A DNA stretch of 39,089 nucleotides from an uncultured Candidatus Saccharibacteria bacterium (GTDB lineage: Bacteria; Patescibacteriota; Minisyncoccia; Phycocordibacterales; UBA1006), in NCBI GenBank assembly GCA_964605495.1, contig CAZSCW010000001.1, forward strand, positions 4,843 to 43,931. Direction: 5' to 3'. The translations under genes were made by a program, and so were the position numbers. The notes under the pieces are model-generated. The model was given only the letters and a program-made list of their open reading frames with translations. It had not been told where the DNA came from and made no database searches. Numbering within the stretch: the first letter of the stretch is position 1; every line of letters starts with the position of its first letter. Shown here piece after piece: positions 7,477 through 39,089 of this stretch.

Positions 7477-8415
7477 TTAATTTACAGCGAACATACGTTG
7501 CATTGTGTTGTAATTATTGACTAATAAATTATAATTTTTTTGAAAAACTAAAAATATAGCAATTCTGGTTGATTCATCTGATGGCCCAAAAACACTTTTT
7601 GATAATGCTTCTGACATTCTTTTCAAATCATTTAATAACATTAGGTGACCCTCGATAAAATCATTTGGTACCGGTAATGATTTTAATTCTGTGACTTCAC
7701 GACTGAGTGTTCCTTGAAACAATGTTAACTGTGCACTGTTCTCTCCACTAAACAAACTTGCATAAATTGCTTTTATAGATGCATCATCCAATATCACAAT
7801 CTTTTTTACACTGTCTATTTTAGCTTTATAAGGTGCTTCTGCGTTATCTTCTGAATATTCAATATCATCTAACGTATATGGTGAGATTTGATTTTCAATT
7901 GAATCTGCAAGATCTAATAACTCTTTGGTAGTTGCTGCCTGGACAGCCTCTTGGATATTATTTCCTTTCGGATCTGTTAGTAATCTTTGATAAATTTTTA
8001 GCGCAAGCTTGTCTTCTGTGGTAACTGCATTTTTTGCAGCATCACTATTTAATAAATACCGCACATCCTGAGGGACACTATCGGCACTGTTTGGGATGTT
8101 TGGATCAGTACCAATTAATGCTTCTTGCCAATCAGCAAGTCCATCACCATCAGTATCTTTATCCACACTGAGTTCTCCTTTTGCTCGATCCCCTGCTACT
8201 GGTGTTGGAATAGCTACTAATGATTGCAATGCATTGTTTCTAATTTTTTGAATGAGTGATAATACAGGTTTCCATAATGCATATCCAATAATTAAAATTA
8301 ATATAATGATCAATACTCGTCTGATCTGTGGACCAGGTAAATATTTTTCCCACGGATGTTTTGGTGGTTGTATAGTGTTTTCAATTTTTTTATTATCGAT
8401 GTTAGAGGTATTCAT
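7477..8415 (-). CDS. membrane-anchored hypothetical protein with one Ca-binding-like DxDxDGD motif
   Basis: ORF 7477..8463. The start at 8415 (MNTSNIDNKK) avoids overlap with the rsmA stop at 8420. TM is VLIIILILIIGYALW; motif is DKDTDGDGLADWQE. Confidence 0.7.
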   Translation of the reverse strand: MNTSNIDNKKIENTIQPPKHPWEKYLPGPQIRRVLIIILILIIGYALWKPVLSLIQKIRNNALQSLVAIPTPVAGDRAKGELSVDKDTDGDGLADWQEALIGTDPNIPNSADSVPQDVRYLLNSDAAKNAVTTEDKLALKIYQRLLTDPKGNNIQEAVQAATTKELLDLADSIENQISPYTLDDIEYSEDNAEAPYKAKIDSVKKIVILDDASIKAIYASLFSGENSAQLTLFQGTLSREVTELKSLPVPNDFIEGHLMLLNDLKRMSEALSKSVFGPSDESTRIAIFLVFQKNYNLLVNNYNTMQRMFAVN

Positions 8416-14487: not shown

Positions 14488-14982
14488 TTACCGTATTGTT
14501 ATATTTTCTAGATATTCAATCCGTTTCAAAGTTCCTTCTTCATTTAAATAAACTCCAATTCCATCTACCTGCCAGCGTGTTTCACGTGGAACTTTTTTTA
14601 AATTTGAATAGATTTCAGCAGTTTTTAATAATCGCTTTATTTTGAAAAATGAAATATTTCCAAAAGGATTAATCATTTTTTTATTTTCTTTTAAAAATGT
14701 TTCACGAGAAACAGTATTTTTCACCGTTTTTATGTCTGTTTCATGTGAAACAATTGGTTTTATTGATATTTCAACATTATTTTCAGTTTCACGTGGAACA
14801 GTAACAGATTTAACCTCAATAAAATGAATTCTATTATCTTTCTTGACTATTATATCAATCTCACCAAATCTACATGAAAAGTTTAATTCTAATATTTTGA
14901 AACCTCGTTTCACGAGAAACATTTCAGCGAATTTTTCACCAGTTGATCCAATTTTTTGTTTTTTTGATGTAAATTTACGCAT
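14488..14982 (-). CDS. YraN/UPF0102-family endonuclease-like protein with a ~45-aa parS-built insertion
   Basis: GEKFAEMFLVKRGFKILELNFSCRFGEIDIIVKKDNRIHFIEVKS core and C-terminal WQVDGIGVYL. The middle segment carries VPRET/VSHET/VSRET/VPRET, each encoded by a parS-like palindrome. Confidence 0.75.
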   Translation of the reverse strand: MRKFTSKKQKIGSTGEKFAEMFLVKRGFKILELNFSCRFGEIDIIVKKDNRIHFIEVKSVTVPRETENNVEISIKPIVSHETDIKTVKNTVSRETFLKENKKMINPFGNISFFKIKRLLKTAEIYSNLKKVPRETRWQVDGIGVYLNEEGTLKRIEYLENITIR

Positions 14983-15442
14983 AATTTTTTCTTTGATATT
15001 TGTTACACATGAAACAGGTATTTATATATAAAATATATATGTTTCACGTGAAACATATATATTTTCCACACAAGTTGAATATTGTTTTATTTTAATGTCT
15101 TTTCTATAATAGCTTATATTATAAGGCTTATATACTGCTGTATCATACAATAAAATGATTTCAGACACAATATTACCAAAGTAAAAGACATATTGTGAAG
15201 TGTCTTTTATGAACATACACCCCAATGTTATCCACAGTTCTTTTATTTATAAACCTTATTTCCCACACTAAAACATGCTTAAAATATATATGCAAAACCT
15301 TTTGGACATAATATAGGACATGTTTTCTTATTAAAACTGAGCAAAAGTGGGGATAACTTGGGGAAGTGTCTTAATAATAAATATTGTAGAGAATCACTCA
15401 AATTGAATAATATAAATTATATGTTACAGTGTCAGTATCAAT
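14983..15442. other. candidate replication origin (oriC-like AT-rich gap)
   Basis: - TTATCCACA at 15228-15236 is a perfect DnaA box.
- TTTTCCACA at 15062-15070 and TGGGGATAA at 15348-15356 (reverse orientation) have 1 mismatch each.
- TTTCCCACA at 15259-15267 has 2 mismatches.
- (TA)n tracts and a perfect parS are present.
- Gene orientation flips here.
- No dnaA gene is in the window. Confidence 0.45.
15040..15055. promoter_or_regulatory. perfect 16/16 parS site
   Basis: TGTTTCACGTGAAACA, nested in a longer palindrome AAAATATATA-TGTTTCACGTGAAACA-TATATATTTT (15030-15065). Confidence 0.85.
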
Positions 15443-20535: not shown

Positions 20536-20726
20536 TTGACTCATTGGACCGTTTTTGCTATTGTCTCATTTCGTGAGTGACCAGTGGGGAAACTGTCAGA
20601 CTTATGTTGTTCTTTAAAAAACCGAAAACTAGATTACCGTCCTGTTGGCCTGACAAGTCATTATGCATTTTAGTACAATTACGTTTTGAAAAACCCTTAC
20701 CATTTCTGGTAGGGGTTTATTTTTTT
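20536..20726 (+). ncRNA. candidate small RNA unit (promoter to terminator)
   Basis: TTGACT(20536)-17 nt-TATTGT(20559), then ~150 nt with no ORF, ending in the hairpin AAACCCTTACC/GGTAGGGGTTT plus a T-run (20691-20726). It contains the CTCA-tttcg-TGAG hairpin and the TGTTCTTTAAAA motif shared with the island modules. Confidence 0.3.
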
Positions 20727-22415: not shown

Positions 22416-23378
22416 TTATTTCCCATGAAATTTCTTATGAACCTCGCGCAATTGTTTGTCAGTCACGTGTGTATAGACTTGGGTCGTTGCAATGTTCGCA
22501 TGGCCGAGCATCATCTGGACTGATCGAATGTCAGCGCCATTGGAAAGTAAATCAGTTGCAAAACTATGGCGTAGAACATGCGGTGTTACGCGCTTTGAAA
22601 TTCCCGCAACAGTCGCGTAATGTTTTACAATACGTTCGATGGATCGTGGAGTCAGTCGCATATCAGCAGATGATTTTGCAGATACGTTTACGAACATTGG
22701 TTCGGCAAAATCCTTGCGGACACTTAAATATTTTTTTATTGCATCACGCGCGCGATCTGAAATAAATACCACACGAACCTTATCACCTTTTCCTCGAATT
22801 GAAAATTCATCTTTACTTAAATCTAATCCTCGGTTCAGGGAACATAATTCTGACAGACGAAGTCCAGTAGAAAAAAATAATTCAAGTAATGCACGATCGC
22901 GGTAACGAACAATATTTTTTTCATCTTGTTTTTTTTCAGATTTTGGATTTGTTAAATTTTGCATCATTGGCGCCTTTAAAAATCTTTTTAGTTCATCACC
23001 TGACAACGGATCAATATCACGTGATCCAGTTTTGGCCAGTTCAATAGCATCTGGGGTCAGTGCCTCGATCCCACGTTTTCTCAAATATTTTAAAAACGAA
23101 CGCAGTGCAATCAGATAATAATTTTGCGTCGCCTTTTTCATAGTTCCTTGTGATTGGCCTTTTACTTTCACACCCTTGGAACGATTCAGGTGTAATCTGA
23201 ACTCTCTTAAAATATTTTCATTAATATCTGAAACATGTTGAATTTTCCCAAACTCAAAAAAAACATCCAAATAATGTTCGTAGTTACGAACAGTGTTTAA
23301 CGCACGTCCACGTTCGATTTCAACATATTCTAAAAATTGTCTTTTGAGATCTGTAATAGTCATATTGTTTTTTTTCAT
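22416..23378 (-). CDS. tyrosine recombinase XerC/XerD-like
   Basis: N-terminal SAM-like domain and catalytic HVLRHSFATDLLSNGADIRSVQMMLGHANIATTQVYTHV. The start could be 23378 or 23363. Confidence 0.9.
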   Translation of the reverse strand: MKKNNMTITDLKRQFLEYVEIERGRALNTVRNYEHYLDVFFEFGKIQHVSDINENILREFRLHLNRSKGVKVKGQSQGTMKKATQNYYLIALRSFLKYLRKRGIEALTPDAIELAKTGSRDIDPLSGDELKRFLKAPMMQNLTNPKSEKKQDEKNIVRYRDRALLELFFSTGLRLSELCSLNRGLDLSKDEFSIRGKGDKVRVVFISDRARDAIKKYLSVRKDFAEPMFVNVSAKSSADMRLTPRSIERIVKHYATVAGISKRVTPHVLRHSFATDLLSNGADIRSVQMMLGHANIATTQVYTHVTDKQLREVHKKFHGK

Positions 23379-23407
23379 TATATCACAATTTGGCATGCTA
23401 AAAATTT

Positions 23408-28692: not shown

Positions 28693-29112
28693 ATGTTAGC
28701 ATCTATCAGATCAAAAATTCCCTTTTTAAAAAGTAAAAAGCTTCCCAAAGAAGACAAGAACTTAAAACCAGAAACAAAAGTAATCTCAATGAGAATACTT
28801 AACAAAGACCGAAATGTTGAAATTCTAAAGGATAAAATTTCATTTGAAATAGAAAACGATAAAAATTCACCCAAAAATGAATTATCGTTATTCTACAATA
28901 TCCTTTTGAAAGAACAAAAGAAAGATTTTGAAAAAGGTGATATAAAATTAGTTGAATCGTTTAATATCATACCTAATAAAGAAAAAACTGCCAAAGTTGA
29001 CATCACTATCACTAATAAAAGTTTTACAAAAATTAAAACAGATCATGACATTAGGGAATTGTTGAGTAAAATTTTGGTAATAAAAACAAGGTTCGAACAT
29101 GGAAAGCACTAA
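28693..29112 (+). CDS. hypothetical K-rich protein
   Basis: 139-aa ORF behind TTGACA(28625)-16 nt-TATAAT. Confidence 0.5.
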   Translation: MLASIRSKIPFLKSKKLPKEDKNLKPETKVISMRILNKDRNVEILKDKISFEIENDKNSPKNELSLFYNILLKEQKKDFEKGDIKLVESFNIIPNKEKTAKVDITITNKSFTKIKTDHDIRELLSKILVIKTRFEHGKH

Positions 29113-30352: not shown

Positions 30353-30659
30353 GGAAAAGTTCTCGATAGCAAATAAATATATTAAATACATGATTTGTTT
30401 TTGCTTTTCGATCGTAATGGTGATTAACCCCTTGGGTTGGTGTGAAGGCGCTGGTACATATTGCTATGCCAGTTTTCTGAGGCCTTCACACCGGACGCGG
30501 TTAATGGTCCATAAGTAGATCTGTTCTAAAGAATTTACGTCAACTCAAGTTGTTTTTACGTTGAGCTGGTTGTTGTCATCTTTTTCTAATCAGAAACCTG
30601 ATTAGAAGTAATGACTTTTCCGAACGTTTGATGATCTACCGAGAACTTTCTCGTTTTTT
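30353..30659 (+). ncRNA. candidate ~300-nt structured RNA
   Basis: - No ORF.
- 30353-30369 pairs with 30636-30652 (14 WC + 1 GU of 17).
- Internal perfect stems are GGTGTGAAGGC/GCCTTCACACC (30439-49 / 30482-92) and TTCTAATCAG-aaac-CTGATTAGAA (30584-30607).
- T6 at 30654-59. Confidence 0.4.
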
Positions 30660-30930
30660 GGTTGCTTAGTGTCCCATTTTTCATTGTTAATTTTTAAAGA
30701 ATTGATTTACCTACCAAGTATAGCAGATTCTAAAAATATGTCAAGCTTTTTGCAAAAATAGTCTATCTTTTTCGTCAGGGTAGGCTTTTTTGTAATAATT
30801 TTAATTTTTTCCATTAAATATTTTTATAGAAATATGTCAAATTTTAGTATATTTTGTCTATTTAAAACAACAAAATATCCTTTATTTATAATGATTAATA
30901 TAGTTATCCACAGTTTTATGTCGAAATGAT

Positions 30931-30959
30931 TTGACAAAATATAATGAATCTGCTATACT
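30931..30959 (+). promoter_or_regulatory. strong sigma70-type promoter firing into the noncoding rsr leader
   Basis: TTGACA-17 nt-TATACT. A perfect DnaA box TTATCCACA sits at 30904-30912 just upstream. Confidence 0.6.
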
Positions 30960-31181
30960 GCAATTAAGAACGTGAGATACAGTCATGTTCAATACCGCGA
31001 GATACATAAAAACTGTTTAATTCTTTAGACAGACTCTTGAAACCAAGTCCACTTGATATCAGCCATATGGTTGGTATCTGGAATAGTTGGAATCAGGTAC
31101 GTCACCGAATGACGTTAAATGTCGGCGCAATCATATGCGATATTGAATAATTCTTTTACAAAAAAATAAAACTATATAACT

Positions 31182-31349
31182 ATGCCAAAAACACCGAAAG
31201 ATATCTGGAAATTAACAGTTGCCCTACTGGACCAAAACGGCTTTACCACTCGTGGTGAAAAGAAAAAAGACGCACAGAAGAAAAAGAAGCAATTCTTTTT
31301 TGAAAAGCGATTACTTACTAATCCGGTTGGGAATGGAAAACACCGTTAA
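31182..31349 (+). CDS. possible 55-aa basic small protein in the leader
   Basis: Hand-translated MPKTPKDIWKLTVALLDQNGFTTRGEKKKDAQKKKKQFFFEKRLLTNPVGNGKHR*. No clear RBS. Confidence 0.25.
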   Translation: MPKTPKDIWKLTVALLDQNGFTTRGEKKKDAQKKKKQFFFEKRLLTNPVGNGKHR

Positions 31350-31399
31350 GTTACCATCTGTCTCTCTTGCAGGTTTTGGCGTAGCCAAAGAGAATGTTC

Positions 31400-31474
31400 A
31401 TAATCGTAACTGATTATGATCTTTATCCAGATTATGAAGCAATTCATAGTTTGGTAGAGATGTTCTTTCAAAAA
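31400..31474 (+). ncRNA. A-type RNA module, copy A1 (variant)
   Basis: Small hairpin ATAATC/GATTAT, then CTTTATCCAGATTATGAAG-caat-TCATAGTTTGGTAGAG, then tail ATGTTCTTTCAAAA. Confidence 0.5.
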
Positions 31475-31547
31475 TCTTGAAAGGAATATCCCCAGCATCA
31501 TTTATAAAACGGAGATGGTGTTTGGAATATTCCTTTCGAGGAGAAAA
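31475..31547 (+). ncRNA. C-type RNA module, copy C1
   Basis: TCTTGAAAGGAATATCC ... GGAATATTCCTTTCGAGGAGAAAA, a ~16-bp stem. Confidence 0.5.
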
Positions 31548-31811
31548 ACAATAGGCTGGTGTCAGGACCACAACATCTCTGAATTTACATTCGAACTAAA
31601 TCGGATATAAATGTGGGATTGTTTGCAGAAATATTAAAAAATAATTCTTTGATAAGAGAAAGTAGGAAGATGCAAGAGCTTAGTCATTTCGACTATGTAT
31701 CGTCTATCCTATGATCCGCCTTTCTGATCAAAAGGTTTCAAATTTCTTGGCAGGGTATTACAACTATATCCTTATCTATAAGCATGACGATGTGAAATGG
31801 TAAAATTTTTC

Positions 31812-31921
31812 GGGAAATTGTTTTGCAATCGAGCAAAACAATTTCCCTTCTTATCAGGATCATAACTAATACAAAAAGTTATGGTTCTGTAGGAAGTAAT
31901 GGTCCTACTGTTCTTTTAAAA
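31812..31921 (+). ncRNA. A-type RNA module, copy A2
   Basis: Perfect 15-bp hairpin GGGAAATTGTTTTGC/GCAAAACAATTTCCC, then TTCTTATCAGGATCATAA-13 nt-TTATGGTTCTGTAGGAAG, then tail ...CTGTTCTTTTAAAA. Confidence 0.55.
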
Positions 31922-32692
31922 ATTGTTCACCAAACCGTTCTGCTTCTCAACCTGTGTTGTCGCGCAGGGCCATTATCCGTAAGGATATGGCGTTCCCTTG
32001 GATCTACTTGTCGCTGACTATTATTTCCCGGCTTGGAAATGATGGAAGACTACCTATCCGAGGTTACTTCGCAAATCTAACAAATAAAATTATGTTTTAC
32101 TGTTGGTGGATTCTCAATTCTCGACCAGAGGATTGTAGGGTTTACCAACGCAAACCGAGAAGCAGAGGGTGTGACTACCTGGGGCGGTTACCCAAACAGT
32201 CCAAGCGTTAGCAATCTTGATTATTATTTTCTTTATCATGCATTCCCATCAACCAGGAAGCCAATGTTTCAAAAAGAAACGTTGGCTTCTATCATCGGGA
32301 ATGATATGTTAGGAAAATAATTTTCAAGTCGTTTGGAATGATCATGTGCGCAGTGATTGTTCGAACCAAAGGTTGGTACTCCTTTGGAAGTTGTTAGGAT
32401 GATTCAGGAAATTCTTCTAGAGCTATTCAATGGTCTGGCCGGACTATTGATAGACGTGAAGGGTTTCCTGACATCCGAAATGTCCCGGCACTATGTCAGG
32501 ACAGTTACCTTATTCGCCTCTTGTCGCTTGATCTTTGATTTCTATACCAATAGAGAGAAAAGAAACGACTGCAGAATTAGGTTACTTCGCAGAAAAGTCT
32601 TTTTATTTCGGCGGGGATCCTGTTCCGTACAGACGATACCGCCAGGCCTTGGGATTGAACATAATGTTCAATCCCTTCTTATCAGGATCATA
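31879..32692 (+). ncRNA. ~0.8-kb ORF-poor, highly structured segment between modules A2 and A3
   Basis: Multiple long stems:
- 32244-32300: CATTCCC...GGAAGCCAATGTTTC-aaaaa-GAAACGTTGGCTTC...GGGAATG
- CCTGACAT/ATGTCAGG at 32467-32499
- long-range TCTGCTTCTC (31939-48) pairing with GAGAAGCAGA (32156-65). Confidence 0.4.
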
Positions 32693-32728
32693 AAGTAATT
32701 TGTGATTCTGTAGGAATTTGTTCTTTGA
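32651..32728 (+). ncRNA. A-type RNA module, copy A3 (immediately upstream of rsr)
   Basis: GGGATTGAAC-ataat-GTTCAATCCC, then TTCTTATCAGGATCATAA-loop-TGTGATTCTGTAGGAA, then tail TTTGTTCTTTGA. Confidence 0.55.
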
Positions 32729-32758
32729 TTTTAAAATAATTCTGTTGCTGACGATTTG

Positions 32759-32813
32759 TTTATTTGGTGAAAAAGGGGGTTAAATCACATGTGACTCTCT
32801 TTCACCAAATAAA
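32759..32813 (+). promoter_or_regulatory. perfect 14-bp hairpin ending 9 nt before the rsr ATG
   Basis: TTTATTTGGTGAAA (32759-72) pairs with TTTCACCAAATAAA (32800-13). The 27-nt loop contains AAGGGGG. Confidence 0.5.
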
Positions 32814-32822
32814 ATTTCGTCT

Positions 32823-34427
32823 ATGACTACTATACATACTATTACCGCTGCTTTTGCTGGAAGATCTACAGAATCATCTCATGTTAATCATGCAGGTGGT
32901 ACATCTTTCAGAAGATCCTTGTGGGAACAACTCCTACAAGTACTCAGCACGAATACCTTGAGTGATACATTTTATGTGAAGAAGGAGCAGCTTGCTTCGG
33001 AAACCATAGATGTGATCATGGAGGCTCGTGAAAAAGATCACCGTTTCCTCGCACAAGCAATTGTGTGGGCGCGTAGAGATGGTTTAATGAAATTGGTTCC
33101 GACACTTGCTCTCGCGATTCTTTCTGGAAAGAAAGGTATCGAGCCGCAATTGTTTTTGAACACGTTTCAGCAAACAATCTTGACGCCGGATGATCTCCGC
33201 ACATTCGTTTCAATCATCAAGTCTGGTGTAGTGCCAGGCAGAAGAGGAATTGGTGGAGTGGTGCGCGATGCTGTTCGTACTTGGATGGGTGGTATTTCCG
33301 AATATCATGCTGTTAAGTACGGCTCGGTTAATTCCGATGGAGTTACACTCCGCGACATCTTGCGCCTGACTCACCCGAAACCATCTTCTGATGTGTTGAA
33401 CGAGCGTTTTGGATGGCTTGCAGGTTCGCGCAAGGGAGACCTTACGTTGAATCCGCAGATTTTGTCATTGGAAAAATTGAAGCGTGCAACAACCGAAGAA
33501 GAGATAGTTCAATTGGTTCGCCAAGGAAGACTACCCTACGAGGTTGTGGTGCCGTCAGTTCCGAAGATGACAAAGGCTGTGTGGGCCGAGCTGTTACGAC
33601 AAGCTCCGTACATGAACCTACTTCGAAACTTACGTTCGTTCCGCGAACATGGAGTTTTTGAAGACCAGGCAAATGTCGAGTACGTTGTTGGCAGACTCAC
33701 CGATCCGCGTGCGGTTGAGGCAAGTCGAGTATTACCATTCCGCTTTTTTGATGCGTTAAAAGCTTTCACATTCACCTCTGCACCCGACATGCAGATACGT
33801 GATGCGATAGCGAGCGGGCTTGAATTGTCATTTGTGAATCTTCCGAATTTCGGTTCGGAGACACATGTGACAATTGGTTCAGATGTCAGTGGTTCAATGT
33901 CATCTTATTCAATCTCTGAAAAGAGCGAGACTAAGTGCATTGATATCTGTGGTGTCTTTACCGGAGCTCTCTTAAAACGTAGCGAAAATGTACTTACACT
34001 TCCATTCGAGGGACATGTTGTACATTTGCCACTTTCAAAGCACGACAGCATCGCTGAAACGGCTCGAAAGATTGCAAGTGTGCGAGGTGGTTCCACAGCG
34101 GTTGGTGCACCAATACAATACCTGCTTGATCGTAAGATTAAGACAGATGTATTCATTGGTATCACTGACAACGAGGATTGGGCATATGGATCAGGACACG
34201 CAGTGTCAGGTAAATTTTACGACTTGTGGTTACGCTACAAGAAGGAAATTAACCCAAATGCGAAAGCATTTCTGGTAACCATTCTCCCATACCGCGACGC
34301 TGTAGCCCCTGAGGGCTCGGATGTTCATTTCATCTACGGATGGAGTGAGAAGGTATTGAATTATATTGCTTTGAAAATATCTACAGGCGCGAGTCAGGTA
34401 GATAAGATCAGAACGATAGAAGTTTGA
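32823..34427 (+). CDS. rsr: Ro60-related protein Rsr (TROVE domain + vWA domain)
   Basis: 534 aa. N-terminal NHAGGTSF...LSDTFY and ...AQAIVWARRDGLMKLVPTLALAIL match the TROVE pattern of Ro60/Rsr. The C-terminal vWA has the MIDAS motif DVSGSM. Visibly higher G+C than its neighbours. Confidence 0.85.
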   Translation: MTTIHTITAAFAGRSTESSHVNHAGGTSFRRSLWEQLLQVLSTNTLSDTFYVKKEQLASETIDVIMEAREKDHRFLAQAIVWARRDGLMKLVPTLALAILSGKKGIEPQLFLNTFQQTILTPDDLRTFVSIIKSGVVPGRRGIGGVVRDAVRTWMGGISEYHAVKYGSVNSDGVTLRDILRLTHPKPSSDVLNERFGWLAGSRKGDLTLNPQILSLEKLKRATTEEEIVQLVRQGRLPYEVVVPSVPKMTKAVWAELLRQAPYMNLLRNLRSFREHGVFEDQANVEYVVGRLTDPRAVEASRVLPFRFFDALKAFTFTSAPDMQIRDAIASGLELSFVNLPNFGSETHVTIGSDVSGSMSSYSISEKSETKCIDICGVFTGALLKRSENVLTLPFEGHVVHLPLSKHDSIAETARKIASVRGGSTAVGAPIQYLLDRKIKTDVFIGITDNEDWAYGSGHAVSGKFYDLWLRYKKEINPNAKAFLVTILPYRDAVAPEGSDVHFIYGWSEKVLNYIALKISTGASQVDKIRTIEV

Positions 34428-34728
34428 TATCTTTGAAGGGATGTTGATATTTGGCGATCGGACCGGTTTCACACTGCTTACTACTACCGATAGCAAGGTA
34501 GCGTACAAGTATTTTTTCAAACGGAAAAAATGCGGAGCAGCCGGTTGGCAACAGAAAGTACCTTGCTTGCGAGGGAAAAAGTGAAGAAGGTATCAGATTC
34601 CGCCTTTTAAAATAATTGGAATCACTATATAGACTATTTCGTCATGTTTGCGAAAGCACATGAATATCCTCGCCTTGGTGGAAAACGAAAAGGTGAAATA
34701 GTCAGCGGTTACCAGAAATGGATCCGCA

Positions 34729-34779
34729 CCTGTCCTGAAATGTATATTTCAGCTGATGAGTCCAACAGGACGAAACAGG
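34729..34779 (+). ncRNA. type III hammerhead ribozyme HHR-1
   Basis: CCUGU-C(cut after 34734)-[CUGAAAU guau AUUUCAG]-CUGAUGA-[GUCC aaca GGAC]-GAA-ACAGG. All core nucleotides are present, with a GUC cleavage triplet and stem III open. Confidence 0.9.
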
Positions 34780-34798
34780 AATTGATATCGTGAATTAC

Positions 34799-34837
34799 AA
34801 CAAAACCGCTTGATTGCGGTTTTGTTGTTTCTTTTTC
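34799..34837 (+). terminator. intrinsic terminator right after HHR-1
   Basis: AACAAAACCGC ttgatt... GCGGTTTTGTT followed by a T-rich tail. Confidence 0.65.
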
Positions 34838-34858
34838 TACTCGTGCTATAATTTTGTT

Positions 34859-35407
34859 ATGAAAAGTATTAATACCATTAAAAATACAATAAAACATCAT
34901 CAATCAACCATTACTAAAATAATAATGGTTGTAGTAGTAATTGGATCAGCTTTTGCAGTACATCATGTAATGGCAGCTGATATTCCTGCAGCACCAAATC
35001 CTGCAAAATTGGTAAATGATAATGCAGGAATGTTGAGCGCTGAGCAAATTTCAACACTCGAGAAAAAATTACGAGCATATAATGATTCGACAACTAATCA
35101 AATAGTAATTGTAACAGTGCCAAGTATTGGAATGTACGCAATTGATGATTATGCAAACCGATTAGCAAATCAATGGGGAATTGGAGTTAGCGGAAAAGAT
35201 AATGGAATTTTGGTATTAGTTGCAAAAGGTGAAAAACAAATTGATATTGAAGTTGGTACACGCATGGATGCATCTGTAACTGATATTGATGCAAAACGAG
35301 TTATTGATCAACAAATGGTTCCAGCGTTCAGTAAAAAGGATTACTATGGAGGACTGACAGCGGCAGTTGATAAGTTAATTGCAACTATTACAGCACATCC
35401 TTTATAA
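34859..35407 (+). CDS. TPM-domain (YgcG-like) protein
   Basis: Signal/TM, then VNDNAGMLSAEQISTLEKKLRAYNDSTTNQIVIVTV...GILVLVAKGEKQIDIEVG. Start at MKSINT (34859), behind TATAAT at 34845. Confidence 0.85.
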   Translation: MKSINTIKNTIKHHQSTITKIIMVVVVIGSAFAVHHVMAADIPAAPNPAKLVNDNAGMLSAEQISTLEKKLRAYNDSTTNQIVIVTVPSIGMYAIDDYANRLANQWGIGVSGKDNGILVLVAKGEKQIDIEVGTRMDASVTDIDAKRVIDQQMVPAFSKKDYYGGLTAAVDKLIATITAHPL

Positions 35408-35410
35408 ATA

Positions 35411-35443
35411 AAAACACCTCATTCCGCAGAATGAGGTGTTTTT
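35411..35443. terminator. bidirectional terminator
   Basis: CACCTCATTC cgca GAATGAGGTG with A/T runs. Confidence 0.7.
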
Positions 35444-36218
35444 ATTTTGCCTGTATCCACAGTGTTTCAAAAATCATTTTCGCAAATTCGTAAATAGATT
35501 TATTGGTGATTACAATAGAATGTAATCCCTGATCCCAAATAGTAAATGTCACGTGATTTTTCCAGATAGAACAATGCAAATTCGGATTGAGTATTTTTTT
35601 TGAAATAATTCGTGTATCACGCAGTTTTAATCGTGATTCTTTTAGTTCGTCTTTTGCCATAGGGGATTCGGTAATAATGTTTCGTGCTGTAATACCTTTT
35701 TTCCGGCGAGCTTTACCATACCCATGCAGACGATCCTTTGCAACAGTAAATTTCTCAACTTCACCAGAAATACGTAACACTTCTCCATTTTTATCTTGAT
35801 CAAGTGACCTAAAAAACAAATCAATAAAACCGTCTTCACCTTCCAAGTGTTCTACATCTATTTGTTCAGTTTCGCCACGTAATGCAAAAAACGTACGAAG
35901 TTCTGGAAAAACAGATTCTAATGACTCCATTTTTTGTGTTGCAATTATTTTTTCATACTCTACAAAGTTTTTTATTTTTTCAGGTTTTTCAATATACATC
36001 ATGCGCCGCTTACCAAGTTTGGTTACACCCAAAACTTTTCTCTCAAGGAGGTTTTCAGTAGCTACATGTACCGTCGAACGGGGAAGTTTCACCCCAGATG
36101 CAATATCTGCAATAGTCGAAAGTCCAGATTTAAACAAGTAAAAAATAACCTGCTGTTCGGCCATGTCCAACCCAATAGTTTTTAATGCTGTTTTAATATC
36201 TTTTGGTATTTCAATCAT
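35442..36218 (-). CDS. TrmB-like winged-helix transcriptional regulator (paralog 2)
   Basis: LKTIGLDMAEQQVIFYLFKSGLSTIADIASGVKLPRSTVHVATENLLERKVL. Same length and architecture as 29571..30335. Confidence 0.8.
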   Translation of the reverse strand: MIEIPKDIKTALKTIGLDMAEQQVIFYLFKSGLSTIADIASGVKLPRSTVHVATENLLERKVLGVTKLGKRRMMYIEKPEKIKNFVEYEKIIATQKMESLESVFPELRTFFALRGETEQIDVEHLEGEDGFIDLFFRSLDQDKNGEVLRISGEVEKFTVAKDRLHGYGKARRKKGITARNIITESPMAKDELKESRLKLRDTRIISKKILNPNLHCSIWKNHVTFTIWDQGLHSIVITNKSIYEFAKMIFETLWIQAK

Positions 36219-36342
36219 GATTACAGTGTAGCATATATGTTTAAAATGACCAATTTTTATGACACTTTTAAAATATAATACTAATTTATAAAGGATATAT
36301 TCAAAATAATAATTAAAGTATTAGTATTTAGTGTCATTTTAC

Positions 36343-36371
36343 TTGACTTTTCATGTATACCATGCTATACT
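36343..36371 (+). promoter_or_regulatory. sigma70-type promoter firing into noncoding modules
   Basis: TTGACT-17 nt-TATACT. An inverted repeat ATGACAC..ATACTAAT / ATTAGTAT..GTGTCAT (36259-36337) abuts the -35. Confidence 0.55.
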
Positions 36372-36434
36372 GGTTGTAGAAAGATGAGATAAGAAAAACA
36401 TCTTTCATAAAAATTGTTCATTAAAAAACAACAT

Positions 36435-36572
36435 ATGAAAAGAATAAGAGAGTTTTTTGAAAATTTTAGTGATGATCACCCATTCATCACAGCAATAATG
36501 GTATTAGCTGTTATTGTTTATGTATGTCACTGGTTAGGTGTGCATACATCCTTGTCTGGCATTGACAGATAA
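36435..36572 (+). CDS. possible 45-aa hydrophobic peptide
   Basis: Hand-translated MKRIREFFENFSDDHPFITAIMVLAVIVYVCHWLGVHTSLSGIDR*. One TM-like stretch. No clear RBS. Confidence 0.3.
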   Translation: MKRIREFFENFSDDHPFITAIMVLAVIVYVCHWLGVHTSLSGIDR

Positions 36573-36586
36573 ATGCAAAGGAAAAT

Positions 36587-36665
36587 GGACGAGCCTTTAT
36601 AAAATCGTCCACATTATTCAGCTCACGAATTTCGCGAGTTGATAGTGTAACAATGTTCTTTGAAA
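36587..36665 (+). ncRNA. B-type RNA module, copy B1
   Basis: GGACGA-12 nt-TCGTCC, then CATTATTCAG-CTCACGAatttCGCGAG-TTGATAGTG, then tail AATGTTCTTTGAAA. Confidence 0.5.
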
Positions 36666-36668
36666 TAA

Positions 36669-36730
36669 TCTCGAAAGGAATATTCTGCATATCAGAATAT
36701 GATGAATAGAATATTCCTTTCGAGGAGAAA
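36669..36730 (+). ncRNA. C-type RNA module, copy C2
   Basis: TCTCGAAAGGAATATTC ... GAATATTCCTTTCGAGGAGAAA. Confidence 0.5.
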
Positions 36731-36844
36731 GCACTTCTTGTTTTGGTTGTTGAACAGGAAAGTAGAGACCTGCTCTCTCATGACACAACAACCAGCCTCG
36801 TATAGTTTGATGGAACTATGCTGTGGCGTATTTGCTCCATCATA

Positions 36845-36928
36845 GGGAAGTGTATAAGCAGAAACACTTCCCTTTCTTATCAGGATCATAAAACAATTTG
36901 TGGTTCTGTAGGGAAATGTTCTTTGAAA
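36845..36928 (+). ncRNA. A-type RNA module, copy A4
   Basis: GGGAAGTGT-10 nt-ACACTTCCC, then TTTCTTATCAGGATCATAA-loop-TGTGGTTCTGTAGGGAA, then tail ATGTTCTTTGAAAAG. Confidence 0.55.
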
Positions 36929-36931
36929 AGA

Positions 36932-36981
36932 TTTAATTGGTTACCTAAGTTTCTTACCAGAAATTTAGGTAACCAATTAAA
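36932..36981 (+). promoter_or_regulatory. perfect 17-bp hairpin ending 9 nt before the lipoprotein ATG
   Basis: TTTAATTGGTTACCTAA (36932-48) pairs with TTAGGTAACCAATTAAA (36965-81). 16-nt loop. Confidence 0.5.
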
Positions 36982-36990
36982 TTAAGAGAT

Positions 36991-37305
36991 ATGAAAAAGA
37001 TAAGTATTATCGCATTAGGATTCATAATGTTTTTGACTTCTTGTAAAAACGAAACCTATTACCAAGGTAAGGGTGTAGTTATTGAAGAAGACAGAACATA
37101 CTTTGGGGGTGTGCAAGTGAAAGTATCAGTTGATACTGCAGGAGATGGTAACCAGATTTGGTTCTGGGCATCTCCTGCAGGTTTTGCTGATAGCTATCAC
37201 CGCTATTCTCAAGGTGACACCGTAGACGTTGAATACATGGCATTCAATAGTTGGGTCAGTCCTGTGACGGAAAAGTCCAAACAAGACAGCGCTGAAGTAC
37301 AGTAA
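36991..37305 (+). CDS. small lipoprotein, hypothetical
   Basis: MKKISIIALGFIMFLTSC has an LTSC lipobox. 104 aa. Confidence 0.7.
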   Translation: MKKISIIALGFIMFLTSCKNETYYQGKGVVIEEDRTYFGGVQVKVSVDTAGDGNQIWFWASPAGFADSYHRYSQGDTVDVEYMAFNSWVSPVTEKSKQDSAEVQ

Positions 37306-37377
37306 GCATGTCGCTGGCTAAGGTGCAAAACACCTTACACTCTTGTCTGAAAGAGGTAAAACTTCAGGAAGGAGAAC

Positions 37378-37455
37378 GGGCAAGCCTATATAAAATTGCC
37401 CTCATTATTCAACTCACGAATTTCGTGAGTTGATAGTGTAAGTAGTTCTTTAAAA
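37378..37455 (+). ncRNA. B-type RNA module, copy B2
   Basis: GGGCAA-12 nt-TTGCCC, then CATTATTCAA-CTCACGAatttCGTGAG-TTGATAGTG, then tail TAGTTCTTTAAAA. The first stem is fully compensated relative to B1. Confidence 0.5.
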
Positions 37456-37679
37456 TGACAAATATTTTTTATGGAAGGTTTTATAGAATATCCCCAGTAT
37501 TGTATAGTTTTGGTATAACGCTGTACAAACTCGCTTATGATTCGGCACTATCCGACTCAATGATTGGCACCTGCATATGCCAAAGGAATTGGTTGATTTA
37601 CCAAATACCAATTTCAAAACTAGTAGGTTGATTATTCGTATGGGATTACGAACCTGTCTCTAGAAGATAAATGATCAAC

Positions 37680-37766
37680 GGAGAAACAAATGCCTTGGGA
37701 AATGTTTCTCCTCTTTATCCAATCCATGAAGTAATTCGTGGATTGGTAGAGAAAATGTTCGTTACA
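37680..37766 (+). ncRNA. A-type RNA module, copy A5 (variant)
   Basis: GGAGAAACA-14 nt-TGTTTCTCC, then TCTTTATCCAATCCATGAAG-taat-TCGTGGATTGGTAGAG, then tail AAAATGTTCGTTACAAAA. Confidence 0.5.
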
Positions 37767-37848
37767 AAAATATTTTCCAATCTATTAAATTCAGAAGATA
37801 ATAACTCTTAAATATTTTGGGTAAATTAACCAAATTTTTAAGTTAAGT

Positions 37849-38055
37849 ATGGAAAGATTAGATGTTTATATAGAGATAGGTGATCATTATTACTCTGGTC
37901 TCTATAAAAATTGCCCTGTAATATCTTCTGGTGATGACTGGGCTATTGTATATGTCGAGGTTGGCGATCATTATTACTCGGGAGAGTATAGAGTTCTGCT
38001 TTATGGTGATCGCTGGATGACTACAGACTACTATGGTTATCATTACGATGGGTGA
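37849..38055 (+). CDS. hypothetical 68-aa protein with an internal duplication
   Basis: VYIEIGDHYYSGLY and VYVEVGDHYYSGEY repeats; Y/G/D-rich. Confidence 0.5.
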   Translation: MERLDVYIEIGDHYYSGLYKNCPVISSGDDWAIVYVEVGDHYYSGEYRVLLYGDRWMTTDYYGYHYDG

Positions 38056-38178
38056 ACCCTCTCGCTCTAGAGGTATTGTCGTTAGACATGAGAGGTGCGT
38101 TTTGTCCCCGTCTTGCCGAAAAGATGGAGAGCCTCGAGGAAGCAGAGCCTCACGAGTGATTGCATCTTGCATCCTCGT

Positions 38179-38230
38179 TCTGTCCTAGAATGTATTATTC
38201 TAGCTGATGAGTCCAAAAGGACGAAACAGA
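38179..38230 (+). ncRNA. type III hammerhead ribozyme HHR-2
   Basis: UCUGU-C(cut after 38184)-[CUAGAAU guauu AUUCUAG]-CUGAUGA-[GUCC aaaa GGAC]-GAA-ACAGA. Stems I and III differ from HHR-1 only by compensatory pairs. Confidence 0.9.
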
Positions 38231-38268
38231 TTCTTTTACAAATTTCATAAACAAAAAAAACAGATAGC

Positions 38269-38568
38269 ATGGAAAAGAAATATTATCACTTAGAAAACCT
38301 TGATAAAATCATCACTAAAAAAATCGAGAGTGAACCACAACCACAAATGCAGTCACAGTCACATCTACCGCCAAACTGTATAGACTGTAAGCATCATCGT
38401 GTACTTCCTGACCCAGATCCCGATGATTGGTTCTGTGATGACGATGAAAAAGTTTTGTGTACCCTTGCGAAAAAATTAGTGACAGTCGCATGCAGGCCGC
38501 ACCACAAGCGAAAAGAATGCACGGTTCCGTCATGGTGCCCACTGCTGCAAGCAAACCAAACCGTATAA
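38269..38568 (+). CDS. hypothetical Cys-rich 99-aa protein
   Basis: Eight Cys (CIDC...FCDDDEKVLC...ACRPHHKRKEC...WC). Starts 39 nt after HHR-2. Confidence 0.55.
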   Translation: MEKKYYHLENLDKIITKKIESEPQPQMQSQSHLPPNCIDCKHHRVLPDPDPDDWFCDDDEKVLCTLAKKLVTVACRPHHKRKECTVPSWCPLLQANQTV

Positions 38569-38604
38569 AAGTATCATTATTTTTTCACCCTTAAAATAAT
38601 AACA

Positions 38605-38928
38605 ATGGACAATAAAAAATGTCTTTTCAAATATGATGATTTTCTCAAAAATCACATTAATGAGACAATGAGCCCCGAGATCACTGAGTTGTTTCGCAAC
38701 TATGCCTGGCAAGCACCACATGCATTTCTTGCGCTCAAGCGTATAGATCGCATCGCTCAAATAGGTACTGCATCAGGAGAAGTACTAAAACAACTTCTCG
38801 TTGATATGCAGGAAAAGTTCAAACGTGCCGGCATTGCAAGAAACGAGGTCGCGAAGATTAAACAGGTATTGTTTGATAGATATCCTGATATCCAGAGGAA
38901 AATCAAACAAACCCCTGTATCGCGATAG
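38605..38928 (+). CDS. hypothetical 107-aa protein
   Basis: ATG ORF 37 nt after the previous stop, followed by a terminator at 38939-38963 (AGAACAGG aaatc CCTGTTCT TTTT). Confidence 0.55.
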   Translation: MDNKKCLFKYDDFLKNHINETMSPEITELFRNYAWQAPHAFLALKRIDRIAQIGTASGEVLKQLLVDMQEKFKRAGIARNEVAKIKQVLFDRYPDIQRKIKQTPVSR

Positions 38929-38996
38929 TAGTTTTCACAGAACAGGAAATCCCTGTTCTTTTTATTCAATTTAATCTATAATTAGAAAATAATTCT

Positions 38997-39089
38997 ATGA
39001 AAGAACAATTAATTATAAAACGCGAAAGCAAACAAGAAAATCGAGAAAGTTTTTTAAAGCGATTGGAAGGGAAATTTACACCAGAACAA
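38997..39089 (+). CDS. hypothetical protein, first 31 codons (runs off the right edge)
   Basis: ATG at 38997. MKEQLIIKRESKQENRESFLKRLEGKFTPEQ stays open to the window end. Confidence 0.4.
   Translation, partial: MKEQLIIKRESKQENRESFLKRLEGKFTPEQ

Follow-up and report, generated by a model that had tools for sequence, protein, structure and literature searches.

Repeated two-hairpin RNA modules as putative junction signals in the cassette arrays of a Candidatus Saccharibacteria genome

An island of small genes and non-coding RNAs in a stretch of 39,089 nt from an uncultured Candidatus Saccharibacteria bacterium (the window) raises the question of whether the hairpins repeated between these cassettes are functional RNAs and, if so, what they do there. 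These hairpins prove to be genuine and conserved as RNA structures, outside every catalogued RNA family; the junction module found no match in Rfam 15.

A single module family with seven copies

The module consists of a variable, G+C-based hairpin (P2), a bulged hairpin (P3) and a single-stranded tail GUUCUUUNAAAA, in this order. B1 (36578-36668) and B2 (37369-37458), both on the + strand, form the same two hairpins as originally predicted, with z values of -4.3 and -6.2, respectively, against shuffles, and they share 92% identity in an alignment of 91 columns. In B1, P2 is formed by 36587-36592 and 36605-36610, P3 extends from 36612 to 36647 with a bulge of one base near 36618-36619 and the tail GUUCUUUGAAA occupies 36655-36665. 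The corresponding parts of B2 are 37378-37383/37396-37401, 37403-37438 and the tail GUUCUUUAAAA at 37445-37455. The proposed recoding of P2 is borne out: GGACGA/UCGUCC in B1 and GGGCAA/UUGCCC in B2 differ by four substitutions that make up two compensated pairs, and the stems enclose a 12-nt loop, GCCU[U/A]UAUAAAA. The word GTTCTTTNAAA occurs eight times in the window versus 0.5 expected occurrences, and five of these are + strand sites of the island.

Searches relied on a covariance model derived from just the two B copies (R1), a family model (R2) and a model of the C hairpin (R3). R1 also matches the A-type copies A5 (37671-37770; 41.5 bits, E 3.7e-8), A1 (31389-31475; 29.5 bits, E 8.6e-5) and A4 (36835-36931; 18.9 bits), so that B does not form the separate class it had been taken for and the seven copies of the window constitute one family. 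R2 recovers all seven, exclusively in the island and exclusively on the + strand, with 93.5 bits for B1, 93.1 for B2, 72.8 for A5, which carries the tail variant GUUCGUU, 66.9 for A1, 47.8 for A4, 35 for A3 (32642-32733), which is the last junction 5' of rsr, and 29 (E 2e-4, filters off) for A2 (31803-31923), a member with a long P2. An alleged degenerate third B copy on the + strand at 20566-20620 is not a member. It reaches 11 bits with R2 (E 2.3) even with filters off, folds no better than shuffles (z +0.94) and has two 11-nt blocks in common with B2 and nothing more; it is a relic at best.

Structure statistics were derived from 64 module copies from genomes of ultra-small (CPR) bacteria. 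Pairing holds in 94.9% of cells as compared to 41-55% after shifting the partner by one to three columns, changes on both sides occur in 20 of the 22 pairs, and the covariation score of 0.757 (0.289 in shuffles) was reached by none of 500 shuffles. An independent combination of MAFFT and RNAalifold recovered P3 from the homologues with 14 of its 18 pairs compensated. P3 comprises 16-19 bp with a one-base bulge, and its lower helix is conserved in sequence (YUUAU(U)CAG ... YUG(A)UAG). About a quarter of the module pairs are G-U, which points to the + strand RNA as the functional strand. Positions that are both conserved and unpaired are restricted to the bulge, one junction base and the tail. 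Pairing predictions for 47 copies revealed neither a conserved pseudoknot nor a consistent partner for the tail, whose mean paired probability is 0.57 (0.18 with upstream and 0.39 with downstream bases) versus 0.63 for all bases. The modules are structured + strand RNAs whose compensatory changes are genuine. Covarying homologues exist, as the original prediction had required. Fragments of a decayed gene are ruled out by the position of the modules between ORFs and by the lack of a common reading frame.

Cassette arrays, C hairpins and hammerheads

The island has just two strong promoters, both on the + strand. The first array starts at TTGACA-17-TATACT (30931-30959; 11 of 12 consensus matches) and is arranged in the order small ORF, A1, C1, RNA, A2, RNA, A3, rsr. 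The consensus promoter of the second array, TTGACT-17-TATACT (36343-36371), is divergent from a gene on the - strand (35442-36218) for a TrmB-like winged-helix regulator (Pfam TrmB, E 6.6e-5). This promoter is kept in genomes G004, G025, G038 and G044, where TrmB-like orthologues likewise adjoin arrays, and more distant homologues do so in G040, G057 and G098. Only two genomes encode the array's small basic protein. A dedicated partner protein for the module was not found, and TrmB-like proteins are widespread, with members in 45 of 101 genomes. The rsr gene (32823-34427, + strand), one cassette of the first array, encodes a Ro60 protein with the Pfam domains TROVE and vWA_Ro60, the match to NCBIfam Rsr being far under the cut-off.

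Modules share their orientation with the flanking ORFs, and 35 of 63 copies start no more than about 20 nt past the upstream stop codon. Spacing to this stop is tight, while the distance to the next start codon varies from 8 to more than 300 nt. Further hairpins on the + strand follow some of the tails. One resides between the A3 tail and the rsr start codon (32759-32812; z -6.5), with a hairpin at the equivalent position in loci L008, L012 and L014. Another, 3' of the A4 tail (36931-36982; z -10.1), is a near-perfect hairpin of 24 bp that stops just 5' of a start codon at 36991 and has homologues in G004, one after an A copy and one after a hammerhead.

The long hairpins C1 (31475-31547; z -5.8; R3 101 bits) and C2 (36669-36730; z -6.6; R3 74 bits), both on the + strand, exist as described, with a common base UCUYGAAAGGAAUAU/AUAUUCCUUUCGAGG and differing interiors. 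C1 combines a 15-bp base (31475-31489 with 31527-31541) with a 12-bp upper stem and is followed by GAGGAGAAA; C2 has 19 bp (36669-36687 with 36707-36725) plus 5 bp and is followed by GAGGAGAAAG. They begin 4 nt 3' of the A1 and B1 tails, respectively. The hairpin is present in five related genomes, G000 (two copies), G004, G044, G025 and G038, located 3' of a tail or tail-like word and downstream of the orthologous promoter. Its upper stem covaries (GGAAUAU/AUAUUCC, GGAGUCU/AGACUCC, GGACCGU/ACAGUCC). C is not an independent module; it makes up the conserved hairpin at the 5' end of variable non-coding cassettes, a short one of which is opened by C2 and closed by A4.

Two type III hammerheads are encoded on the same strand. 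The first (34727-34781; Rfam RF00008, 40.6 bits, E 3e-6, under the gathering score of 48.5) precedes a terminator at 34797-34828, and the second (38177-38232; 42.8 bits) is followed by the tail-like AUUCUUUUACAAA at 38230-38242. At the CPR loci fetched, the tail GUUCUUUNAAAA appears 3-10 nt past stem III in eight of ten hammerheads, and the segment of tail and hairpin 3' of A4 (36917-36985) shows 75% identity to its post-hammerhead equivalent in G004 (L035, 17167-17237). In a survey of 101 relatives, 19 of which carry the module, hammerheads were found in 8 of the 19 module-carrying and in 6 of the 82 other genomes (odds ratio 9.2, for genomes that are related and not independent). TROVE occurs in 3 of the 101 relatives and in 1 of the 19 carriers. 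The module family is co-distributed with hammerheads and not with Ro60.

A putative punctuation signal and its alternatives

At other junctions the slot held by our hairpins is filled by hammerheads, and the hairpins therefore probably mark sites of transcript cleavage or insulation. The best explanation, to which we would give an even chance, is that the seven copies represent one conserved cis-acting RNA junction ("punctuation") module that allows the polycistronic RNA to be cleaved or insulated one cassette at a time. Long + strand transcripts would begin at the consensus promoters beside the TrmB-like regulator gene, and modules would separate their cassettes, i.e. small genes or non-coding RNAs. 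At other junctions of such arrays a type III hammerhead takes the slot of the module, followed by the same tail, and a C hairpin directly 3' of the tail forms the 5' end of a variable non-coding cassette that ends in the next module. Structure, family, copy number, genomic position and the hammerhead link are observed, and from them we infer the cleavage or insulation role as well as the acting enzyme, which may be a host ribonuclease. The candidates are RNase III, RNase Y and RNase J, all of which the genome encodes; the tail and the long duplexes would be likely points of attack, and the hairpins may be left behind as protective ends. The failure to find a dedicated partner protein or a conserved pairing partner of the tail speaks against this explanation, as does the resemblance of P2 and its U-rich stretch to a weak terminator.

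Other readings deserve consideration. It is rather unlikely that the module is an attenuator, pause site or partial terminator in which P2 or P3 with the following U-stretch lowers or times read-through between cassettes. Such a role would fit modules that start directly after stop codons, a G+C-rich P2 base followed by 5-6 U in 8 nt, a U-rich tail after structured RNA in both junction types and a terminator scan that flags two of the seven copies (A2 and A3). However, P3 and tail are still covarying and conserved downstream of the supposed P2 terminator and hence both function in read-through transcripts. P2 has long loops of up to about 25 nt among aligned copies, a gap of 3-10 nt between P3 and the tail is too wide for a classical terminator, and the true terminators of the genome (34797-34828 and 38939-38959) exhibit long U runs. 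The tail and the next long hairpin are situated 15-100 nt 5' of start codons, the hairpin after the tail hides the Shine-Dalgarno sequence of rsr in L012 and L014, and the bulged, sequence-conserved helix resembles a protein-binding site; a 5'-leader operator or insulator, protein-bound or self-folding, that sets translation or stability of the downstream cassette without a cut is conceivable on these grounds. We regard it as unlikely, given that the module also stands 5' of non-coding cassettes (C1, C2), that spacing is tight towards the upstream stop and not towards the next start, and that no protein partner was seen to co-vary with it. A self-cleaving ribozyme of a new class, made up of module plus tail and standing in for the hammerhead, would account for the slot and tail shared with type III hammerheads, the co-occurrence in genomes and the failure to match any Rfam family, and Weinberg et al. 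are said to have discovered ribozyme classes in 2015 via such neighbourhood association. Yet the conserved bases mostly reside within ordinary Watson-Crick helices (P3a), while known small ribozymes conserve junctions or internal loops instead; with so few conserved unpaired bases and no conserved pseudoknot, we consider a ribozyme quite unlikely.

Three further readings have much less in their favor. The original prediction included a riboswitch-like arrangement with a tail that switches between the closing helix of B (1:2) and the C stem (2:3). A 9-bp helix of the tail preceding C1 with the 5' arm of C, UUCUUUCAA/UUGAAAGGA, can indeed be drawn by hand, and the B1 and B2 tails are able to pair with AAGGAGAAC on the 5' side. 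The switch is nevertheless not general and very improbable: the 5' partner is confined to the B subtype and retained in L017 and L040 despite a decayed tail, the C hairpin is missing after most copies, the predicted partner differs from copy to copy, a C stem of -30 kcal/mol would beat a 6-9-bp alternative and nothing resembles the conserved core of a ligand pocket. A pyrimidine tail can pair with any AGGA-rich stretch, and a conserved or covarying partner is lacking. Most of the original prediction, i.e. the B and C hairpins, stands, whereas the third copy and the switch do not. It is hardly credible that the modules are Y-RNA-like ligands whose bulged helix is bound by the Rsr protein of the island, even though rsr is no more than 4 kb away on the same strand, five CPR loci (the window, L007, L008, L012 and L014) have a copy directly upstream of this gene and a bulged helix ending in UUGAUAG is reminiscent of the Y RNA stem; the rarity of TROVE among module carriers, the absence of the motif GNCGAAN0-1G and of tRNA-like arms, and the lack of an Rfam Y RNA match all argue against it. 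We would scarcely expect the repeats to act as DNA either, be it as integron-like attC sites or as small mobile palindromes that shuffle cassettes. Cassette order does vary among genomes with a module at each cassette end, B subtype ends read AAC...GTT, and 68 nt of C1 are 100% identical to the copy in the sister genome G004 within flanks of 70-80% identity. However, the G-U pairs would be C-A mismatches on the opposite strand, each module has two hairpins instead of one, just about 9 of 64 copies have the 5' AAC and the sole recombinase of the window is XerC/D-like (228 bits versus 110 for the integron integrase model, cut-off 265).

Comparison with known systems

In polycistronic mRNAs of phage T7, RNase III processing hairpins lie between genes. 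Like these, the modules are repeated, related hairpins with an interrupted helix between cistrons, and a hairpin would remain at the RNA end after the putative cut; a sequence relation does not exist, and the unit described here also comprises another hairpin and a single-stranded tail that is conserved. RNase Y sites in Gram-positive operons, e.g. saePQRS of Staphylococcus aureus, are guided by a downstream hairpin and resemble our junctions in the A/U-rich single strand beside a stable hairpin within an operon transcript, and RNase Y is encoded in the genome studied here. To our knowledge, however, such sites show little sequence conservation and never occur as multi-copy covarying modules. 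Integron attC sites are likewise structured repeats at the 3' ends of promoterless cassettes with covarying stems and drifting sequence, but the modules consist of two hairpins, their G-U pairs are strand-specific and an integron integrase is absent from their neighbourhood. The bacterial Y RNAs YrlA and YrlB (Chen et al., 2014, PMC4201824) are structured RNAs that are also found at most 4 kb from rsr on the same strand, whereas the modules lack GNCGAAN0-1G, tRNA-like arms and co-occurrence with Ro60 across genomes. For clustered hammerheads flanking single genes, cleavage of long transcripts has been proposed (Perreault et al., 2011, PMC3088659). A, B and C do not contain the hammerhead core CUGAUGA...GAAA. 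Like the clustered type III hammerheads of bacterial and prophage transcripts, the modules are positioned between small genes of one predicted long transcript; the tail and hairpin downstream are common to both, and both occur together in arrays and in genomes.

The module family and its covariation

The two B-type copies, B1 (36578-36668) and B2 (37369-37458), are 92% identical with a single gap in the alignment. Each folds into a variable hairpin P2 (6 bp, 12-nt loop) and a bulged hairpin P3 (7 bp, one-base bulge, 9 bp), at fold z-scores of -4.3 for B1 and -6.2 for B2, and the compensatory recoding of P2 put forward in the original prediction is borne out, the four substitutions amounting to two compensated pairs. 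A covariance model derived from B1 and B2 alone (R1) recovers three of the A-type copies in the window, A5 (E 3.7e-8), A1 (E 8.6e-5) and A4 (E 0.08), and also matches many copies around the Ro60 gene, rsr, of another Paceibacterota MAG (locus L008). A second model built from ten matches (R2) identifies seven copies in the genome, all on the + strand and all within the island at 30.9-39.0 kb, and has no match elsewhere in the genome, which answers the earlier call for a search for further copies. B and A copies thus are one family: the hairpins described for the B and C types stand, and B has to be given up as a class of its own since a model made from B only matches A copies. The module consensus reads GGnnnA-loop-UnnnCC, a single base, YnUUAU(U)CAG, a hairpin that varies and is capped GAA...UUC, YUG(A)UAGnG, 3-8 nt and the tail GUUCUUUNAAAA; in P3, either C or the U before it can be taken as the bulged base. 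A B subtype with two conserved extras, AAGGARAAY on the 5' side and GCCUnUAUAAAA as the loop of P2, is present in the window's genome, L008 and the relatives G040 and G008.

In an alignment of 64 copies from fetched CPR loci that was fitted to the covariance model, 94.9% of cells pair, sliding the partners lowers this to 41-55%, both sides have changed in 20 of 22 pairs, and the observed covariation scores were reached by no shuffle. P3 was recovered again, with 14 of 18 pairs compensated, when 20 copies were aligned separately with MAFFT and folded with RNAalifold, the check that had been proposed for the homologues. Several pairs are mostly G-U, and selection therefore acts on the + strand RNA. 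The covarying helices are P2, P3 and the stem of the C hairpins only.

A degenerate third copy had been suspected at 20566-20620. This stretch reaches 11 bits with R2 (E 2.3, filters off), folds no better than shuffles and has only ATTTCGTGAGT and GTTCTTTAAAA in common with B2; it does not belong to the family. Three more exact copies of GTTCTTTNAAA occur outside the island, at 4825-4835 (-), 28905-28915 (-) and 20609-20619 (+); they have no adjoining two-hairpin module and may be chance matches or junction relics. Searched at gathering score, Rfam 15 returned three tRNAs only for the whole window. Relaxed runs (E<=5 for 30500-39089, E<=10 for 36560-36940) yielded only two hammerheads besides matches of C2 to generic microRNA-like hairpins at 15-21 bits. 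A, B and C match no Rfam 15 family; the module family is uncatalogued, and a literature search found no paper describing it.

Transcription units, cassettes and C hairpins

The genome containing the window comprises 549 kb and is 78% complete, and the Ro60 loci nearest to its own stem from Paceibacterota MAGs (CPR/Patescibacteria). Two + strand transcription units with consensus promoters at 30931-30959 and 36343-36371 lie in the island. Unit 1 carries a 55-aa ORF, long ORF-free stretches, rsr (32823-34427, +, TROVE plus vWA_Ro60 domains), a hammerhead and a terminator. A TrmB-like gene on the minus strand (35442-36218) diverges from the start of unit 2, which comprises five small ORFs together with the second hammerhead and another terminator. 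Orthologues of this gene lie divergently beside arrays in the relatives G004, G025, G038 and G044, all of which keep the unit 2 promoter; more distant homologues lie beside arrays in G040, G057 and G098. The divergent promoter region contains TAAAATGACMAAT at 36242-36254, conserved there in G004, G025 and G044, and a second site resides within the B2 tail (37451-37463). This word may be a candidate operator, two occurrences against 0.9 expected being weak.

Some cassettes recur. A small, very basic protein of 52-55 aa (GFNxDGTPK...FFERR..TPMGN, without Pfam match) is encoded at 31182-31349 in the window, at 5048-5209 in L008 and at 14829-14987 in the G004 locus L035. It occurs in only two of the 101 relatives, and the 55-aa version was rejected as a partner of the module because it is present in the window's genome and G004 only. 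One conserved cassette preceding a B-type module, in the window (36436-36572) and in L008 (4709-4873), encodes a protein of 45-54 aa for which a single membrane helix is predicted and which would be type I toxin-like in size. Between A2 and A3, upstream of rsr, about 0.7 kb (31930-32640) contain few ORFs and many hairpins; the RNA has no Rfam match and cannot be aligned with its counterparts in other genomes.

Of 101 genomes from the order to which the window's genome belongs, 19 contain module copies matched by R2, often as clusters of 3-8; a sample of 150 further genomes from the class yielded four with matches. The copies are oriented like the flanking ORFs, and 35 of 63 have a stop codon at most about 20 nt before their start; the next start codon follows at anything from 8 to over 300 nt. 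The tail is often followed by a long near-perfect hairpin ending near the start codon, as at 36931-36982 (24 bp, z -10.1) and, before rsr, at 32759-32812. Exact-pattern scans of genome contigs gave nothing useful besides G004 and one Patescibacteria MAG. A phage origin was discarded: pattern matches in IMG/VR number more than 117, and none of 80 loci fetched from these matches the model.

C1 (31475-31547) and C2 (36669-36730) are hairpins with a 15-bp base in common and different interiors (fold z -5.8 and -6.6), in line with the stems with differing loops originally described. The covariance model of C (R3) matches twice in the window's genome and also in G004, G044, G025 and G038, i.e., in the genomes with the closest TrmB-like orthologues; all copies fold at z about -7. 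The base YCGAAAGGA...UCCUUUCGAGGAR is conserved and the next helix covaries (GGAAUAU/AUAUUCC, GGAGUCU/AGACUCC, GGACCGU/ACAGUCC). C is preceded by a junction module in G044 and the window and lies about 60-100 nt after the promoter, with a tail-like word ahead, in G004, G025 and G038. Downstream of C follow 110-450 nt of non-coding RNA that terminates in an A copy in five of six units compared, the exception being G038; from one genome to another, this RNA cannot be aligned. C1 (31479-31546) and the G004 copy (L035 14348-14415) share 68 nt, including the loop, at 100% identity, as against 70-80% for the flanks and 67-72% for the neighbouring genes, which suggests recent exchange or transfer of the hairpin, or gene conversion.

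Alternative readings of the modules

Mutually exclusive pairings of the tail had been proposed as a switch. By hand, the tail can be paired with the B 5' flank, with the C 5' arm or with GAGGAGAAA after C, all of them AGGA-rich. No partner of the tail is conserved across the module family, and its mean paired probability is 0.57 versus 0.63 overall (0.18 upstream, 0.39 downstream), with a predicted partner that differs from copy to copy. None of the alternative partners is conserved or consistent, and none covaries, so that the switch reading is not supported; two mutually exclusive covarying helices, as looked for in a riboswitch, were not found. A closing helix P1 (AAGGAGAAC with GUUCUUU) is confined to the B subtype with different registers in B1 and B2, its 5' strand persists in L017 and L040 despite a decayed tail, and P1 was excluded from the models. 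A pseudoknot that would pair the 5' AAGG with CCUU of the P2 loop was also considered; its bases are invariant or shifted and do not covary. It is possible that the module acts as an attenuator or as a site of pausing. Intrinsic (Rho-independent) terminators have a G+C-rich hairpin directly in front of a U run; in the module, 5-6 of the 8 nt behind P2 are U, and a terminator scan flags P2 of A2 and A3 and not that of B1 or B2. P2 has long loops, and further downstream come the conserved P3 and the tail. An operator in an uncut leader is likewise possible. A coding C-terminal peptide in the 5' part of B was dismissed because of inconsistent reading frames among copies, and an internal promoter (P3 TTGATA plus an A/T-rich box in the tail) in view of a spacing of 11-16 nt, CTGTAG in the A subtype and its absence from the promoter scan. 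Integron attC sites form one imperfect hairpin, carry R''/R' boxes (RYYYAAC ... GTTRRRY) and lie near an integron integrase, whereas the module has two hairpins. AAC...GTT ends occur in about 9 of 64 copies, G-U pairs are frequent, and the recombinase at 22416-23396 is XerC/D-like and falls under the integron-integrase cut-off; on G-U pairs, shape and recombinase, attC or another mobile DNA repeat was rejected.

The vicinity of rsr pointed at Y RNAs. C1 lies 1.3 kb upstream and B1, C2 and B2 lie 2.2-3.0 kb downstream; all share the + strand with rsr and are less than 4 kb away from it, and in five CPR loci rsr is immediately preceded by a module copy. The 5' motif by which bacterial Y RNAs (YrlA/YrlB) are recognized by Ro60, GNCGAAN0-1G (PMC4201824), is absent from B1, B2, C1 and C2 in a regex search, and a search of the island for tRNA-like T/D stem-loops gave no tRNA-like or Y RNA match (Rfam E<=5; ARAGORN). 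TROVE is encoded in three of the 101 relatives and overlaps with the module in the window's genome only, so the modules are no accessory of Ro60. We reject them as Y RNAs or Ro60 ligands on three counts, the motif, the tRNA-like arms and the co-occurrence, which corrects the picture of the island: the arrays follow a general design, and Ro60 is just one of the cassettes. A further non-coding RNA that recurs is marked by the invariant word GCCGGUUGGCAACAGAAAGUA; it is located directly downstream of rsr in the window (34440-34600, core 34539-34560) and L008 (about 7620-7740) and precedes junction modules in G004 (L035 15603-15624, 16217-16238, 16937-16980). It may be a better candidate for a Ro60-associated RNA than the modules. 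In rsr loci from Saccharibacteria and Zambryskibacteria (L012 5860-5945, L014 5880-5950), the post-tail hairpin buries the rsr Shine-Dalgarno AAGGAGAAAC by pairing with GUUUCUCUUUGG, and possibly serves in translational control of Ro60.

A junction slot filled by module or hammerhead

The type III hammerhead core CUGAUGA ... GAAA is absent from B1, B2, C1 and C2 and occurs in the island only at 34727-34781 and 38177-38232. Both hammerheads score 40-43 bits, under the Rfam gathering score of 48.5, and would therefore be missed by default annotation; those of the relatives mostly fall below it, too. Type III hammerheads are present in 14 of 101 relatives, namely in 8 of 19 module carriers versus 6 of 82 others (odds ratio 9.2, Fisher p 6e-4; the genomes are related and hence not independent). 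Eight of ten distinct hammerheads from fetched CPR loci carry the same tail as the module 3-10 nt after stem III (for instance CGAAACAGGGUGUUCUUUGAAAAAG in G004; AUUCUUUUACAAA after the second window hammerhead), and tail plus hairpin after A4 (36917-36985) are 75% identical to the post-hammerhead counterpart in G004 (L035 17167-17237). Given the common tail and the homologous tail-plus-hairpin, module and hammerhead are alternative fillings of one junction design, which reads module or hammerhead, tail, optional long hairpin, next cassette. The earlier observation was largely right, and the structures are real; the B/C classification and the switch reading need revision.

The module is a conserved + strand RNA structure that stands at cassette borders of long arrays and is interchangeable with a self-cleaving ribozyme. 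It would mark cassette borders for cutting or insulation. An endonuclease might attack the hairpin-adjacent single-stranded tail or the long duplexes, the new RNA ends would carry hairpins, and these would shield the RNA from exonucleases. RNase III, RNase Y and RNase J are encoded in the genome and RtcB was not found there, which fits a processing scheme of the Gram-positive type. The same role has been proposed for clustered gene-flanking hammerheads in prophage transcripts (PMC3088659). The module itself could also be a new ribozyme; that, with its GUUCUUU tail, it represents a new self-cleaving class, or a self-processing signal needing no dedicated protein, which replaces the hammerhead at CPR cassette-array junctions appears improbable to us.

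CPR bacteria constitute a large share of bacterial diversity, and to our knowledge almost nothing is known about their RNA processing. Here, a compact multi-copy RNA with strong covariation swaps places with a known ribozyme and could represent a new type of signal for ribonucleases, a new ribozyme class or a new natural insulator, in which last case its layout would resemble the ribozyme-plus-hairpin insulators engineered in synthetic biology.
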